Source of the DNA: Candidatus Heimdallarchaeota archaeon
GTDB lineage: Archaea; Asgardarchaeota; Heimdallarchaeia; JABLTI01
Direction: 5' to 3'
Assembly (NCBI GenBank): GCA_019058275.1
Contig: JAHLVW010000021.1
Span: 1-10,175 of the forward strand
Length of the DNA stretch: 10,175 bases
The translations under genes were made by a program, and so were the position numbers. Positions 1-7,440 of this stretch are shown one piece after another. Every line of letters begins with the position of its first letter. The first letter of the stretch is position 1. The notes under the pieces were generated by a model. The model did no database searches and was not told the origin of the DNA. It worked only from the letters and a program-made list of their open reading frames with translations.

Positions 1-117
1 AGATAAGAGAACGCAAAAAATCATGAATGGTAAAATATTAAACCTTATAAGAAGAATTTATTACTACAAAAATAACAGTATAACAGTAAAAGAAACTCAT
101 ATTGGAGTCAAAGAAGG

Positions 118-1425
118 ATGATAAAACGAGTCTTAGTAGTAAAAAACAAACTTCCATTGGTTAATAGAAGCTATAAACCTGGTATAACCCAAGATCAAGG
201 TACTTCATTAGGTGAATATCAAGCGATTGTTGAAACCATATCTGGAAAAATGCTACCGGTGCAGAAAAAAGAAGAGATAATTGGTAACAATAAACTAACA
301 TATGAATTGGATGATTCTGTACTATTTATAATTAGTTCAGATCCAAATGAAATTGGTATTTTAGAGATCTTACTGCCTGAACTAAAGAATTTATTCTTTG
401 CTATTTTTCCAAAGGATTTTGTTAGTGGATGGTCTGGAGACGATTTATCGGTTTTTAAGGGATTTGAATCAAAATGTGACCAATTACGCAGTGCATTTGA
501 AAATCGGATAATGACCAAATCAGGCAGTCGAAGAGTTATTGATACACTTAGTGTAATGGAATTACCTCAAAGATTACAGAAAACAGCATTAACCATTCTA
601 GATGCTAAAATAGCAGCTTTTGAGGATGTTATCAGATTAACAGCTGTTACTCCACAAGAAGCTGTTGCGAATATACAAGAGATTCTGAATGCAGGTTTTC
701 TATACACTACAAAAATGGGCAATAAAGTGTTTTATTCTGTTAAATCCTTTGACGAATCAACTGTTGTAGAAGCAGCTCCAAGTGCACCTGCACAAGTTGT
801 TCCACCAAGTAAACCAGTACCAACAGCATCAGTTGCAGAAAGACCACTTGGTATCGATGTTAAGAAACGAGATATTGATAAAGGTAATATGCCATTTTTA
901 ATGAAGCAATTTAAGAAGGATTTAGACAAAGCTTTCAACGCAATCATTAATCGCAGAATTATCTTAGTTTTACTAGATCCTAAAACTGATAAAAATCAGG
1001 TATTAATTAACATGATTTTTGATACGTTTCAATGCTTTGCTCCTGATCGAGAATTGCGCATTGTTAGTTTTACAAAGGATTTCATTCATCCACGAGATGC
1101 AGACATCATTCGTGTTGAACGTGACTTGTTGCAATTCTATTCTAATGAAATTGTGCTTGATGTTGATAAAAAGAAAATTCTAAATGGTGATAATTCAGTT
1201 TATTTAGCAGACATAATTAAAGAAATGAGCAAGATGAAACATTCTAAATGTGTTTCATTACTAATCAACCGTGTTGCTTTAATTGAGAGATTAGCTCAAG
1301 ATTGGGCAAAAATCAAGAAACTTAACTTACCTTCTGAAGATTTCATTACTAATGTCAGAGGAAAACACAACCCAGCAATCATTCAAGTTATGGATGATGT
1401 TGCAGTAAATGTATTCATCAAATAA
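118..1425 (+). CDS. Longin + winged-helix + folliculin/DENN-like domain protein (putative small-GTPase regulator)
   Basis: 435 aa. Residues ~1-128 show a longin-like pattern (IKRVLVVK...KLTYELDDSVLFIISSD...ELKNLFFAIF...WSGDDLSVFKGFESKCD). Residues ~141-208 form a wHTH (LPQRLQKTALTIL...ILNAGFLYTTKMGNKVFYSV). A Pro/Ala linker spans ~215-243. Residues ~257-435 are DENN-like (AFNAIINRRIILVL...IFDTFQCFAP...LRIVSF...IVLDVDKKKI). The ORF itself is secure; the domain calls are inference. Confidence 0.7.
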   Translation: MIKRVLVVKNKLPLVNRSYKPGITQDQGTSLGEYQAIVETISGKMLPVQKKEEIIGNNKLTYELDDSVLFIISSDPNEIGILEILLPELKNLFFAIFPKDFVSGWSGDDLSVFKGFESKCDQLRSAFENRIMTKSGSRRVIDTLSVMELPQRLQKTALTILDAKIAAFEDVIRLTAVTPQEAVANIQEILNAGFLYTTKMGNKVFYSVKSFDESTVVEAAPSAPAQVVPPSKPVPTASVAERPLGIDVKKRDIDKGNMPFLMKQFKKDLDKAFNAIINRRIILVLLDPKTDKNQVLINMIFDTFQCFAPDRELRIVSFTKDFIHPRDADIIRVERDLLQFYSNEIVLDVDKKKILNGDNSVYLADIIKEMSKMKHSKCVSLLINRVALIERLAQDWAKIKKLNLPSEDFITNVRGKHNPAIIQVMDDVAVNVFIK

Positions 1426-1454
1426 AGAAAATAGTTGACCTATTGGTCTTTTAA

Positions 1455-1479
1455 TTTTTTTTTCCCCCCTTTTTATTTT
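1455..1479 (+). terminator. U-rich archaeal-type terminator candidate after ORF1
   Basis: T9 at 1455-1463, then C6 and further T runs, starting ~30 nt after the stop at 1425. Oligo-U tracts are the usual archaeal termination signal. Confidence 0.5.
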
Positions 1480-1580
1480 GGTTTGTATGTTGGTAAAAGT
1501 TTTAATCTATTAACTGAAATCTGTTACTTATAATTGAAATAAAACAATCATTAATTACAATTTATAGTCCAGTAAAATAA

Positions 1581-1586
1581 GAGGTG
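1581..1586 (+). promoter_or_regulatory. Shine-Dalgarno site GAGGTG
   Basis: Ends 9 nt before ATG 1596 and matches the archaeal SD core GGAGGTGA. Confidence 0.7.
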
Positions 1587-1595
1587 TAAGAAAAT

Positions 1596-2342
1596 ATGAC
1601 TGATATTTCAGAAGTCTTATCAGCTATCAAGAGAGGAGAATTGATTTTAGAGGAAGCACTCAATGAGTTAAATACTGTTTTTTCTACAGTGAATAAAGAT
1701 ATAGAAGATATGAAGCAACCTATTCAAGAATTAATAGAATTCGAAAAAAGACAAAATAATGAAATCTCAAATTATGAATCAAGCAATTTAGCATTAACTC
1801 AAGAGATTAATTCATTTAAGGAAGAAAAAGCAACGAACGAAAGAACTTTACAAGATACTCAAAATAACCTTGCAGAAACAACAGAGAAGAGAGCAAAATT
1901 AGAAACCAAAAAGAGAGATGCATTAACAGAGCTATCTAATAATGAGAAGAAATTAGACACAGCAAAAGCAGAACTTACCATGGAAAAAGAACTTGAACAG
2001 AAAATTATTGCTGAGAAAAGTCAAATTATTGAATCAACCGAACAGAAAGTCATTGATATCGAAAAACAGGCTGAAACAGAAAAAAATCTGTTGAAAAAAG
2101 CAGAAGGCGAGAGAATGGCCTTAGAATATTTAATAAAAAGAGGTCATATCGAATTCAATGAAATTAAAATAATTAGTTCATTGGAAGGAAGAAAAAATAC
2201 CGATATGACAACTATTTCTAAAGTAACTGGTTTGTCGGAGTCATTAATCGCAAAAACACTTGAAGGATTAATGAAAAGAGGATTATTATCTTATGATGAT
2301 TCTACTGGAGCTATAGCAATTACAGGAAATCTGAAGCTATAA
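1596..2342 (+). CDS. Long coiled-coil protein with C-terminal winged helix (paralog A)
   Basis: 248 aa. About 175 aa of E/K/L/Q-rich heptad helix, followed by a wHTH pattern (EIKIISSL...DMTTISKVTGLSESLIAKTLEGLMKRGLLSYD). Good SD. Confidence 0.8.
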   Translation: MTDISEVLSAIKRGELILEEALNELNTVFSTVNKDIEDMKQPIQELIEFEKRQNNEISNYESSNLALTQEINSFKEEKATNERTLQDTQNNLAETTEKRAKLETKKRDALTELSNNEKKLDTAKAELTMEKELEQKIIAEKSQIIESTEQKVIDIEKQAETEKNLLKKAEGERMALEYLIKRGHIEFNEIKIISSLEGRKNTDMTTISKVTGLSESLIAKTLEGLMKRGLLSYDDSTGAIAITGNLKL

Positions 2343-2355
2343 TGGAGGGCAGGAA

Positions 2356-3105
2356 ATGACTGACTTTGTAAGCTTAAAAAGAAATTTAGCAACCGAAAAA
2401 GAACGACTTGAGAAATTAGGACAAAATACTAATCAAAAATTAGCTGAAGTTCTAAAGGAAATAGAAAATGCATTGATTTATCTCGATAAAACTGAAACTA
2501 GTTTCAAAGAAATGGAGAATAATCTCAACAATCGAAAAAAAGATGAAATCGATTTCCAAAATCAGAAGAAAACTTTACTGAGCGAAATTGAATCCTTAAG
2601 AGAACATATTGAACGCATTAATATCTCAATCAAAGATGAAGATGAAAGAATAGCAAAACTAGAAGCTGAAATATCACAATTAAATAACGATTTAGCACTT
2701 AAGCAAAATGATCTTTCTAAAACAGAGCGAACAATTGGTGACATGAAATCAAGTAATAAAGAGAAAAATCAAGAGAAAGAGGATATTAAGTCAAATATGG
2801 AATTTAGACTTTCAAAAGCTCAACAAATTTTACAAGAACTAGAAATTGAAAAAGAAAAAGACATGAAGGTTAGCCCAATATTAGATTTCTTGCTAAAAGA
2901 GGTACGTATTGATATTCCAGAAGTAGAAATTCTATCAGTGCTTGCTTACAGAAATCAAGCTATGGGTATCGAGGAGCTGAAACAAGCAGCTTCTAAAACA
3001 CCACCAGTTATTATCTTAAAAGTAATACGAAATCTTGACAGTAAAGGCATAATCAAGTACGATGAAAGATTAGATACAATAGAAATAATAGCTAATCTAG
3101 TTTAG
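2356..3105 (+). CDS. Long coiled-coil protein with C-terminal winged helix (paralog B)
   Basis: 249 aa with the same architecture (EVEILSVL...MGIEELKQAA...IILKVIRNLDSKGIIKYD). SD GGAGGG at 2344-2349. The 13-nt gap from paralog A implies co-transcription. Confidence 0.8.
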   Translation: MTDFVSLKRNLATEKERLEKLGQNTNQKLAEVLKEIENALIYLDKTETSFKEMENNLNNRKKDEIDFQNQKKTLLSEIESLREHIERINISIKDEDERIAKLEAEISQLNNDLALKQNDLSKTERTIGDMKSSNKEKNQEKEDIKSNMEFRLSKAQQILQELEIEKEKDMKVSPILDFLLKEVRIDIPEVEILSVLAYRNQAMGIEELKQAASKTPPVIILKVIRNLDSKGIIKYDERLDTIEIIANLV

Positions 3106-3246
3106 GTATTCAATAGAAAACACAAAGGAATTTCTATAGCAAATATCAGCACAAACTTGGCACTTTAGATGGATTTATTAACAAAGTTAATGAATAAATT
3201 TCCGTATACAACGATGATTAATCATATTAAAGAAGGGAATTATTGA

Positions 3247-3786
3247 TTGAGCTTCTTAGCTAGACTCTTTAGGCAAAAAAAACAATTCAAAATAGCAGTT
3301 GTTGGTTTGGATTCAGCTGGTAAAACCACAATGCTAAACTTTTTGCGTTTTGAAAAAAGCATTGAGACATTACCAACGATCGGTGTGAATGTAGAAGTTC
3401 TCCAACGACAAAATGTTAATCTTAGTGTTTTTGATTTGGGTGGACAAATGCACTTTAGGACTCTTTGGGGAACACTTATGAAAGGCTCAAGTGCGATAAT
3501 TTTTGTTATTGATTCATCTGATCACGAACGTATTGAAGAAGCTAAAAATGAATTGTGGAAAGTATTACTTGATCCTTTATATCCAGATGCACCTTTATTG
3601 ATTGTAGCGAATAAACAGGATAAAACATATGCCATGACTATAGATGAAATTATTAGAGCATGTAATTTAGATGATCCTGAGAAAATGCAAAATCGTAGTT
3701 GGCACATACAACCCACAGTTGCAACAACTGGAGTTGGTGTGGAAGAAGCTATCAAATGGATAGTAATTGAATTAGATAAATTATGA
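3247..3786 (+). CDS. Arf-family (Arf/Arl-like) small GTPase
   Basis: 179 aa, TTG start. G1 GLDSAGKTT, G2 PTIG, G3 FDLGGQ, switch II R-x-L-W, G4 NKQD, G5 TVATTG, plus the Arf-type C-terminus RSWHIQPTVATTGVGVEEAIKWI. N-terminal amphipathic helix MSFLARLFRQKK. Confidence 0.95.
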   Translation: MSFLARLFRQKKQFKIAVVGLDSAGKTTMLNFLRFEKSIETLPTIGVNVEVLQRQNVNLSVFDLGGQMHFRTLWGTLMKGSSAIIFVIDSSDHERIEEAKNELWKVLLDPLYPDAPLLIVANKQDKTYAMTIDEIIRACNLDDPEKMQNRSWHIQPTVATTGVGVEEAIKWIVIELDKL

Positions 3787-3805
3787 GTGTTTGGGTGAAA
3801 GATAG

Positions 3806-4105
3806 ATGGTAGAAATCTCAAGACCAATGATTTTACGAATTGGAACTCCAAAAATCGAGAAAGATCTCAAAAGAGTTCATCAGCTGTTGATTAGTGCAGG
3901 ATATCAAAAAGTTGAGGAAGGAAAGTATGCTCACACTTCTGAACCCACTCTTTCTGCACTTTTGGGATTAGACGTTATAAAGGACAATGAAGGGAATCCT
4001 TTAGAAGAAGTAATTGAGCTAATTCTTTCTGATGCTGATAACTATGTTAATCAAACAATATACAACGCTTTAGCAACAGTATTTCCATTGGAATTAACGA
4101 AGTAG
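3806..4105 (+). CDS. Small alpha/beta protein of unknown function, probably co-transcribed with the Arf gene
   Basis: 99 aa, ATG start, SD GGGTGA at 3793-3798, 19 nt after the Arf stop. Composition is typical of a globular protein. Confidence 0.75.
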   Translation: MVEISRPMILRIGTPKIEKDLKRVHQLLISAGYQKVEEGKYAHTSEPTLSALLGLDVIKDNEGNPLEEVIELILSDADNYVNQTIYNALATVFPLELTK

Positions 4106-4217: not shown

Positions 4218-5237
4218 ATGTCAAAAAATAAAGAGATAATTTGCTTAGGTATAGAGAGCACTGCTCATACTCTCGGTGTTGGAATAATAGATTCTTCAGG
4301 TAAAATTCATGCAGATGTAAGATCTTCATATATACCCCCTGTTGGAGGAGGAATTCATCCTAGAGAAGCAGCTAGGCACCATAGTAATATAGCCCCTAAA
4401 CTCATAAGAGATGCACTAAAAGAAGCTAAAATAACAGCAAAAAAACTCTCTTTAATCTCATTTTCACGTGGACCTGGCATGGGCCCTTGTTTACGAACTG
4501 GCGCAGTTATAGCAAGATCAGTTGCTAGTTATTATAAAATTCCATTAGTTGGTGTAAATCATATTATTTCTCATATAGAGCTTGGTAAATTGCTAACGAA
4601 AACGAAGAATCCTATTATACTAATGGTGAGTGGTGGAACAACTCAGATTTCTTCTTTAACGAATAATTATTACACTGTTTTTGGTGAAACATTGGATATT
4701 TCGATAGGAAATTGCTTCGATAAATTCTCTCGAGAAGTTGGCATTCATGATCCAGATAATCCATGGCCAGGACCGATTTTTGATAAGGTTGCTGCCAAAG
4801 GAAAAAACTACCATGAGTTACCATATAGTGTAAAAGGAATGAGTGTGAGTTTTTCAGGATTACTTACTGCAGCAATAAGACTAGTACAAGAAGGAATAAA
4901 ACTGGAAGATGCAGCCTATAGCTTACAAGAAACAGCTTTATCAATGTTAACAGAAATAGCAGAAAGAGCTATTGCACATACAAGAGCTAAAGAATTATTG
5001 GTTGTAGGTGGTTTTGCTAGAAATAAAAGATTTCATGAAATGTTACGTGAAATTTGTAAAGATTGGGGACTAGAGCTTTCAGTTTGTCCTTATAAGTACG
5101 CAAGTGATAATGGTACAATGATTGCTTGGGGTGGCATTTTAGACTATACTGCTTCAGGGGAACTAATGCCAAATGAGTCTCTTGTGTTACCTGATTGGCG
5201 TAGTGATTCAGTAGAAATTAAATGGAATAAAATATAG
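4218..5237 (+). CDS. kae1: tRNA N6-adenosine threonylcarbamoyltransferase Kae1 (KEOPS subunit, standalone)
   Basis: 339 aa. Motifs LGIESTAHT, GGGIHPREAARHH, GPGMGPCL, metal-binding HIISH (HxxxH), VSGGTTQ, GETLD...GNCFDK, YSLQET and DNGTMIA. No Bud32 kinase fusion. Confidence 0.97.
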   Translation: MSKNKEIICLGIESTAHTLGVGIIDSSGKIHADVRSSYIPPVGGGIHPREAARHHSNIAPKLIRDALKEAKITAKKLSLISFSRGPGMGPCLRTGAVIARSVASYYKIPLVGVNHIISHIELGKLLTKTKNPIILMVSGGTTQISSLTNNYYTVFGETLDISIGNCFDKFSREVGIHDPDNPWPGPIFDKVAAKGKNYHELPYSVKGMSVSFSGLLTAAIRLVQEGIKLEDAAYSLQETALSMLTEIAERAIAHTRAKELLVVGGFARNKRFHEMLREICKDWGLELSVCPYKYASDNGTMIAWGGILDYTASGELMPNESLVLPDWRSDSVEIKWNKI

Positions 5238-5265
5238 AGAAAATATTTCACGAGGGTGACATTGA

Positions 5266-5934
5266 TTGATTTTAAAAATTAATCCTGCAAAACCAAATCA
5301 AGAATCTATTAACGAGGTTATATCAGTTCTGAAAAATGGAGGTTTAGTTGTATATCCGACTGAAACAGCTTACGGATTAGGTTGTGATGCTTTTAACACT
5401 CAAGCAATAAACAAAGTCTTCAATGTAAAGAATAGACCTAATGATCAACCTTTGCCAGTAATTGTAAACAATCTGGATATGATTAAAACAATTGCAAAAA
5501 CAAATAATGATATTAAACTTCTTATAAACATGTTTCATCCGGGTCCTTTGGTAATAGCAAGTAACAAAAAGAAGATAATTCCAGATGTTTTGAATGCTAA
5601 AGGAATTGCTTTCAGAATATCTAGTAATATAATCGTTTCAAAAATTATTGATGGTTTAAAGAACCCATTAGTATCAACAAGTGCAAATCTTACTGGAGAT
5701 AAACCACCATACTCACTTGATCAAGTTATTAGCTCGTTAGATGAAACTAAGATAGATTTGATATTGGATGCTGGTCAGTTACCAGTTAGAAAAGTATCAA
5801 CAGTAATTGATTTTCTTGAAGAACCATCACCTCAAATAATAAGAATTGGTGAGATATTGCCTGAAGATATCTTTGCTACTCTTGAAATAAAAGAAGAAGA
5901 TTGGTCTAATCATTTGAGATTAATAAGTTCTTGA
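5266..5934 (+). CDS. sua5: L-threonylcarbamoyladenylate synthase, single-domain TsaC/YrdC type
   Basis: 222 aa, TTG start with SD GAGGGTGA at 5252-5259. Motifs VYPTETAYGLG, KNR (KxR), PGPL, STSAN, STVID and IIRIG. Confidence 0.95.
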   Translation: MILKINPAKPNQESINEVISVLKNGGLVVYPTETAYGLGCDAFNTQAINKVFNVKNRPNDQPLPVIVNNLDMIKTIAKTNNDIKLLINMFHPGPLVIASNKKKIIPDVLNAKGIAFRISSNIIVSKIIDGLKNPLVSTSANLTGDKPPYSLDQVISSLDETKIDLILDAGQLPVRKVSTVIDFLEEPSPQIIRIGEILPEDIFATLEIKEEDWSNHLRLISS

Positions 5935-7092: not shown

Positions 7093-7440
7093 TTATTTCG
7101 ATATCAATGGTGGATAGAGTATCAATATTAGCACAGTTGCGATAATGAAGATAACGAAAATTGCTGTCCAGATGATGAATGTGTTTCTAACTGTATCAGG
7201 TTTTTCTTGTAATCTTAACCTTAATGATACGGTTATGATTATCATTAAGAATGGTAGGAAAAATGCTGGGAATACTCTCTCATTCAATTCAATTGATGCT
7301 ATAAAGAAGATTATTTCAACAATAGCTATTGCTAACCAGGCGAATGTAGATAAATCCATTATTTTGATTTCAATAGGTTGTTCTTTCCAATTAGCAAATA
7401 ATTCGGACTTTTTTGTTTCTGGAACTTCTGTGCTACTCAT
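7093..7440 (-). CDS. Small integral membrane protein, about 3 TM helices
   Basis: 115 aa with three hydrophobic segments (FAWLAIAIVEIIFFIASI; VFPAFFLPFLMIIITVSL; TFIIWTAIFVIFIIATVLILILYP) and a hydrophilic N-terminus. Confidence 0.75.
   Translation of the reverse strand: MSSTEVPETKKSELFANWKEQPIEIKIMDLSTFAWLAIAIVEIIFFIASIELNERVFPAFFLPFLMIIITVSLRLRLQEKPDTVRNTFIIWTAIFVIFIIATVLILILYPPLISK

Follow-up and report, generated by a model that had tools for sequence, protein, structure and literature searches.

A probable three-unit reading of five genes around a Heimdallarchaeota Arf GTPase

Five co-oriented genes at the start of a contig of a Candidatus Heimdallarchaeota archaeon (GenBank assembly GCA_019058275.1, contig JAHLVW010000021.1), one of which encodes an Arf GTPase, raise the question of whether a GTPase switch, its DENN-type regulator and a coiled-coil effector scaffold are encoded there as a single module, as the original prediction proposed, or whether the genes belong to separate units that stand side by side. 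The window, by which we mean the whole stretch of 10,175 nucleotides (nt) that was analysed, carries on its + strand open reading frames (ORFs) at 118-1425, 1596-2342, 2356-3105, 3247-3786 and 3806-4105, encoding proteins of 435, 248, 249, 179 and 99 amino acids (aa), which are referred to below as ORF1, coil A, coil B, the Arf and the 99-aa protein. The successive gaps are 170, 13, 141 and 19 nt, which confirms both the tight and the long spacings described before, and all five ORFs have full-length orthologs in identical order in related genomes and are thus real genes. The analysis favors, with a probability of roughly 0.58, a reading in which the five genes make up three units, namely a non-catalytic DENN adaptor, a coil pair that occurs across Asgard archaea, and an Arf switch together with a small protein as its candidate partner.

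The conserved order of the five genes was found to be real yet uninformative. It is held only within one family (probably Gerdarchaeales), in all members covering it, and within this family Kae1, Sua5, RadA and membrane or ATP-binding cassette (ABC) genes downstream, as well as a five-gene block upstream, are equally syntenic, so that unrelated flanking genes are just as conserved as the proposed module. In terms of sequence, conservation in the family is 75% to 96% for the Arf, 68% to 96% for the 99-aa protein, 60% to 91% for ORF1 and 51% to 94% for the coils. The co-orientation of the five genes is also unremarkable here, because the same-strand run extends beyond them through Kae1 and Sua5, with RadA next on the opposite strand. 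The check on neighbourhood conservation succeeded inside one family, while at 39 loci outside it the coils occur without an Arf, ORF1-type DENN or 99-aa gene nearby, and the proposal of a single switch-regulator-scaffold module was not borne out.

Judged from sequence, the stretch fits three transcription units, because the spacers between units are long, those within units are short, conserved AT-rich blocks precede ORF1 and the Arf, and T runs follow ORF1; this agrees with the caveat, already attached to the original prediction, that there could be up to three. In the family loci the spacers measured 108-187 nt after ORF1, 141-200 nt before the Arf and 112-146 nt before Kae1, in comparison to 11-16 nt between coil A and coil B and 12-19 nt between the Arf and the 99-aa gene. 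A conserved AT-rich block at 40-64 (+), kept in 8 aligned upstream regions, is the candidate archaeal promoter before ORF1, and the T9 run at 1455-1463 (+) in the 170-nt spacer, which had been noted earlier as a U-tract, is a candidate archaeal terminator; the longest T run in this spacer is 5-10 across nine of nine loci. Before the Arf, a conserved block at 3165-3181 (+) with the TATA-like TTTATTAA, about 65 nt ahead of the start, is kept across 11 spacers whose remaining positions diverge and may be the promoter of an Arf plus 99-aa unit. A scan for sigma-70 promoters and hairpin terminators, whose model is ill-suited to archaea, stayed at chance level.

The clearest separation from the Arf was observed for the coil pair. 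Coil A (1596-2342, +) is predicted to be a coiled coil of about 170 residues with a C-terminal winged helix (TrmB, E 0.008 at 189-231; Sso10a-family, E 0.004), and coil B (2356-3105, +), the second of the tandem pair, has the same architecture, with an Atlas model matching helix-turn-helix (HTH) domains over about 174-249. The two are paralogs (hhalign 99.6%), and coil A gave only generic coiled-coil matches in PDB. Profile matches to coil B were obtained in 89 of 151 phylum genomes and in 20 of 27 families, some of the weak ones being to the coil only. At 39 loci outside the window's family the tandem pair was present in 33, and none of the 39 had an Arf, an ORF1-type longin/DENN gene or the 99-aa gene near the coils; a Ras/Rab-type GTPase was nearby in one, in comparison to about 3.4 expected from the GTPase density of the window genome. 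The neighbours at these loci vary by lineage and include ABC transporters, radical SAM, DNA methylase, metallophosphoesterase and MFS genes. The distribution suggests that the coil pair is an independent, older and Asgard-wide unit, and a role at the Arf is not indicated. Because the lengths match and the order is fixed, coil A and coil B may form a parallel heterodimer. Across the loci surveyed (L031-L049, L075-L094) the paired lengths are matched at about 245-255 aa, with four such genes in L087 and L088 and a single one in L090 and L094.

Golgin/GRIP-type Arf/Arl effectors have a small C-terminal domain at the end of a long soluble coiled coil, and the coils share this general plan, but their C-terminal domain is HTH-like, their rod extends over only about 170 residues, and in other families the pair is unlinked to Arf genes. 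When the coils were compared with Arf/Arl effector types (GRIP/GRAB golgins, CCDC22/93), only generic coiled-coil and HTH matches were returned. A Commander-like reading, with DENND10 and CCDC22/93, was also considered and was rejected as based on a generic coiled-coil match, the match to CCDC93 being weak, non-specific and below the cut-off (E 0.003).

The Arf gene (3247-3786, +), whose TTG start is pinned by an in-frame TGA immediately preceding it, encodes an Arf-related GTPase (PF00025, E 3e-50) that matches PDB 8OUN (E 7e-101). This entry and 8OUM are the GDP and GTP forms, respectively, of GerdArfR1 (GenBank NHJ47629.1) from Gerdarchaeales, which in yeast binds membranes in a GTP-dependent manner via its N-terminal helix and without Gly2 (bioRxiv 10.1101/2024.02.28.582541). 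The accessions NHJ47626.1 and NHJ47630.1, which are orthologs of ORF1 and of the 99-aa protein, flank NHJ47629.1; the 181-aa product between them is 87% identical to the Arf, and their contig has the same gene order as the window. Based on these flanking accessions, the gene order and the identity of the Arf, the window shows the native gene surroundings of a protein whose crystal structure has been solved. By sequence the Arf is the GerdArfR1 ortholog, with no difference of substance in the GTPase, and hence this component is not new. Residues G20-T28, D63-Q67 and N122-D125 are invariant save one position in 34 orthologs, with the G1-G4 motifs intact, and Gly never occurs at residue 2 in the same set. 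The hydrophobic moment of residues 2-12 is 0.52, a value exceeded by 12 of 156 other such segments, and residues 2-11 differ by one residue from the helix resolved in 8OUN, so that the amphipathic N-terminal helix is common to both proteins. A text search of the GerdArfR1 paper (bioRxiv 10.1101/2024.02.28.582541) indicates that gene neighbours appear undiscussed there, and no description of native ArfR partners was found in our literature searches.

The gene directly behind the Arf (3806-4105, +) encodes a 99-aa alpha/beta protein of no known family, which from its position, conservation and a predicted complex is a candidate Arf partner. It follows the Arf at the short distance given above in 11 of 11 loci and is confined to the window's family among the 151 genomes searched, the same family-limited range as that of the close orthologs of this Arf. 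Its model is a small alpha/beta domain with a predicted local distance difference test (pLDDT) of 87, residues 71-94 are 97% conserved, and profile and structure searches gave no family match and no specific fold match. The predicted complex of the Arf with the 99-aa protein scored 0.51, in comparison to 0.03 for the best of three controls, with contacts agreeing to at least 84% and a partner pLDDT of at least 77. The mark for such scores was reached by 58 of 80 solved pairs and 2 of 110 mismatched pairs, and scores that pass at 0.60 or under came from only 7 of the 80 solved pairs, yet from both of the mismatched passes. The predicted complex thus lends weak support to a link, and among the neighbours of the Arf only the 99-aa gene appears to have any positive, if weak, evidence of partnership. 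The 99-aa protein would be the best candidate for a native Arf partner; direct binding, which would most likely run through its near-invariant C-terminal strand and helix, is given somewhat less than an even chance.

The following Kae1 gene suggested that the 99-aa protein might be the KEOPS subunit Pcc1, and this identity was rejected, since no PF09341 match was found in 46 members, true Pcc1 is encoded by two genes on other contigs, and the comparison with Pcc1 gave a Z of only 5.4. The best structural matches (Z 8.2-8.5) were to unrelated alpha/beta domains, the adaptin (AP/COPI) platform was absent among the matches listed, and the strand-helix order is unlike that of a roadblock domain. 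A paralog of the 99-aa protein (G000:C41:9092-9379 and L051-L057), with about 30% identity and an LSDA motif common to both, lies in a conserved context of its own.

ORF1 (118-1425, +) was not matched by Pfam, NCBIfam, PDB sequence or Atlas feature searches, and it is identified from the predicted fold. The AF2 model (pLDDT 79) contains a longin domain (1-130), a winged helix (about 142-209), a disordered linker (213-244) and a c/dDENN region (about 246-435). FLCN (E 3e-5) and DENND1B rank first in Foldseek, and VIA returned the Vamp7 longin (Z 14.5, root mean square deviation (rmsd) 2.4, 115 aligned), the folliculin C-terminus over 255-435 (Z 14.1, rmsd 3.2, 172 aligned) and DENND10 (Z 13.1, rmsd 4.1, 174 aligned). 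The model therefore points to a DENN-module protein, longin followed by c/dDENN, with an extra winged helix inserted, for which no profile similarity to the winged helix of coil A was seen. The labels given earlier to the parts (Arf, DENN/folliculin-like protein, paired coiled coils with winged-HTH ends) were correct, although the title of the original prediction does not name the winged helix and the linker of ORF1. A near-invariant basic segment (window 481-534, residues 122-139, with Arg124, 130, 138 and 139) joins the longin domain to the winged helix and may be a binding surface.

The folliculin-like fold does not extend to the catalytic features of that group. The GP motif and the arginine finger are carried by FLCN, SMCR8 and NPRL2, while the GP motif, which sits ahead of longin strand 2 or at its beginning, is missing from FNIP2, NPRL3 and the DENND proteins (PMC12290439). 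No GP occurs in the first 45 residues of ORF1, where position 12, before P13, is most commonly L, V, I, K or Q in 28 orthologs; the hairpin of strands 4 and 5 (63-68) is both short and variable, no conserved Arg was found between positions 5 and 123, and none of 28 ORF1 members matched PF11704. Lacking both the GP motif and the hairpin arginine, ORF1 is not of the catalytic FLCN/SMCR8 GTPase-activating protein (GAP) type, so that of the proposed DENN/folliculin-like regulator the fold was retained and the catalytic motifs were not. In comparison to Folliculin-FNIP, C9orf72-SMCR8 and DENND, ORF1 shares the longin and c/dDENN fold but has a winged helix between the two, and no partner-subunit gene adjoins it.

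The catalytic motifs are borne instead by a paralog elsewhere in the genome (G000:C69:75635-76774, also L121:636-1775; hereafter the C69 paralog). This 379-aa protein carries both an FDxxxGP motif and, in the hairpin, RGGQR, which are kept in eight of eight orthologs; it passes the Pfam Folliculin cut-off (PF11704), and is 77% to 96% conserved in 8 family genomes; Arg99 would, from its position, be the arginine finger. As a GAP candidate it is preferable to ORF1, and on its contig a distance of 69 kb separates it from the nearest small GTPase. The genome holds five DENN-like paralogs and 31 small-GTPase matches. A 504-aa DENN-containing gene (G000:C55:261104-262618) and a Ras-like GTPase gene are convergent, with about 200 nt between them. 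Another ORF1 paralog, about 760 aa long (G000:C1:30949-33225 and L069:6755-9043), family-specific in the genomes searched, has longin, winged helix, insert and DENN, possibly with a second DENN-like repeat, and in another family a protein of about 210 aa with longin and winged helix only (L065:7152-7817, L066:4616-5233) is encoded directly behind a MinD/ParA-like gene, as judged by its N-terminal motif.

Asgard DENN proteins, the FLCN-like architecture, paralog expansions in Heimdall lineages and the pairing of a DENN gene with a neighbouring small GTPase have been published (Liu et al., bioRxiv 10.1101/2020.10.19.343400). The window resembles the Roadblock-Rab-DENN operon described there in having a DENN gene near a small GTPase, but its GTPase is of Arf type and is separated from ORF1 by two coil genes, none of the five was identified as a Roadblock gene, and the arrangement occurs in a single family only.

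In general, the analysis suggests that three separately expressed units of different age lie side by side in a region of generally conserved order in one family. ORF1, a longin-winged helix-DENN protein of non-catalytic type, would most likely take part in the regulation of a small GTPase as an adaptor or as a partner subunit. The ancient A-B pair would most likely form a parallel heterodimeric rod with two winged-helix heads that is independent of the Arf. The third unit would be the Arf and 99-aa gene pair, in which the Arf presumably acts as published for GerdArfR1, with GTP binding freeing the N-terminal amphipathic helix for membrane binding without myristoylation, and the 99-aa protein, probably co-expressed with it, would be its best native partner candidate. 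Several points weigh against this three-unit reading. The five genes were never seen rearranged in any family member, which leaves some weight to a family-specific module; the promoters and terminators used to divide them are candidates drawn from sequence, and joint function is compatible with separate transcription in any case. The 39 outside coil loci include close kin and are not independent, and the longin/DENN profile, built from one narrow family, would miss distant longins beside the coil pair. In addition, the paralog of the 99-aa protein occurs in the family at seven loci with no adjoining GTPase gene, so that this fold as such is independent of GTPases.

The last point also favors an alternative reading, that there is no functional link among the neighbours and that the 99-aa gene is only co-transcribed with the Arf in an inherited order. 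The high background synteny of the family speaks for it as well, as does a complex score at a level where, for a pair that was not likely beforehand, a pass is false more often than true; we nevertheless regard it as unlikely, given the constant gap of 12-19 nt, the family-limited range shared with this Arf ortholog group, the near-invariant C-terminal surface and a score well above all three controls. A bolder form of the partner idea, in which the 99-aa protein is a native nucleotide-selective Arf partner with a fold unlike known Arf guanine nucleotide exchange factors, GAPs or effectors and, in its stronger version, ORF1 and the catalytic C69 paralog also regulate the same Arf, is rather doubtful.

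Less probable than the absence of any link is the possibility that ORF1 regulates this Arf, as a DENND-type exchange factor or as an FNIP/C9orf72-like subunit of a GAP with the catalytic C69 paralog, the coils being bystanders. The predicted longin-DENN fold would suit such a role, the GP motif is missing from DENND proteins and FNIP2 as it is from ORF1 (PMC12290439), the longin-DENN protein with GP and RG..R in this genome would need a partner, and ORF1 lies 1.9 kb from the Arf, whereas a small GTPase is found within 2 kb for 3% of genes. However, ORF1 was chosen for its proximity to the Arf, of the other DENN paralogs, four in number, one has a GTPase gene nearby (P about 0.12, enrichment not significant), there are 31 small-GTPase matches in the genome to choose from, and two genes and two long spacers intervene. 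The reading in which the five products work together as a trafficking module specific to this family, with a switch, a DENN regulator, a coiled-coil tether and a small partner, is very improbable. Eukaryotic Arf/Arl GTPases do recruit coiled-coil tethers, the order is unbroken in every family member covering it, and DENND10 and two coiled-coil proteins are combined in Commander (PMC13392464). Against these stand a coil pair that is far older and sits elsewhere among unrelated genes, coils that end in winged helices and not in a known Arf-binding domain, the non-specific CCDC93 match together with the finding of no prokaryotic CCDC22/93 structures (PMC13392464), and spacers that indicate three units.

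This Arf, as GerdArfR1, and Asgard DENN proteins were already known. Asgard Arfs are known membrane switches, and the identities of their native regulators are still to be established (PMC11914678). Because the locus is the native neighbourhood of a crystallised Arf, it yields ranked and cheap candidates for a GTPase that has already been purified, with the 99-aa protein first and then ORF1 with or without the C69 paralog. If the partner role holds true, no native partner of an archaeal Arf would have been identified before the 99-aa protein, and such a partner would reveal an archaeal Arf target predating eukaryotic coats. The comparison also takes the coil pair out of the Arf story and reveals a widespread Asgard gene pair, of which no published description was found in literature searches.

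Other features lie further along the window and next to it. Kae1 and Sua5/TsaC (4218-5934), which belong to t6A tRNA modification, are adjacent and co-oriented at every family locus. On the - strand, 7093-7440 encodes a 115-aa membrane protein with a weak DAD/Ost2 match (E 8e-4, below the cut-off), which may resemble an oligosaccharyltransferase subunit. Contig C67 has an end that overlaps window 1-384 at 99% (4 mismatches), which is an assembly break or a strain variant, and supplies the upstream genes, among them two small-GTPase genes 6-9 kb upstream of ORF1.

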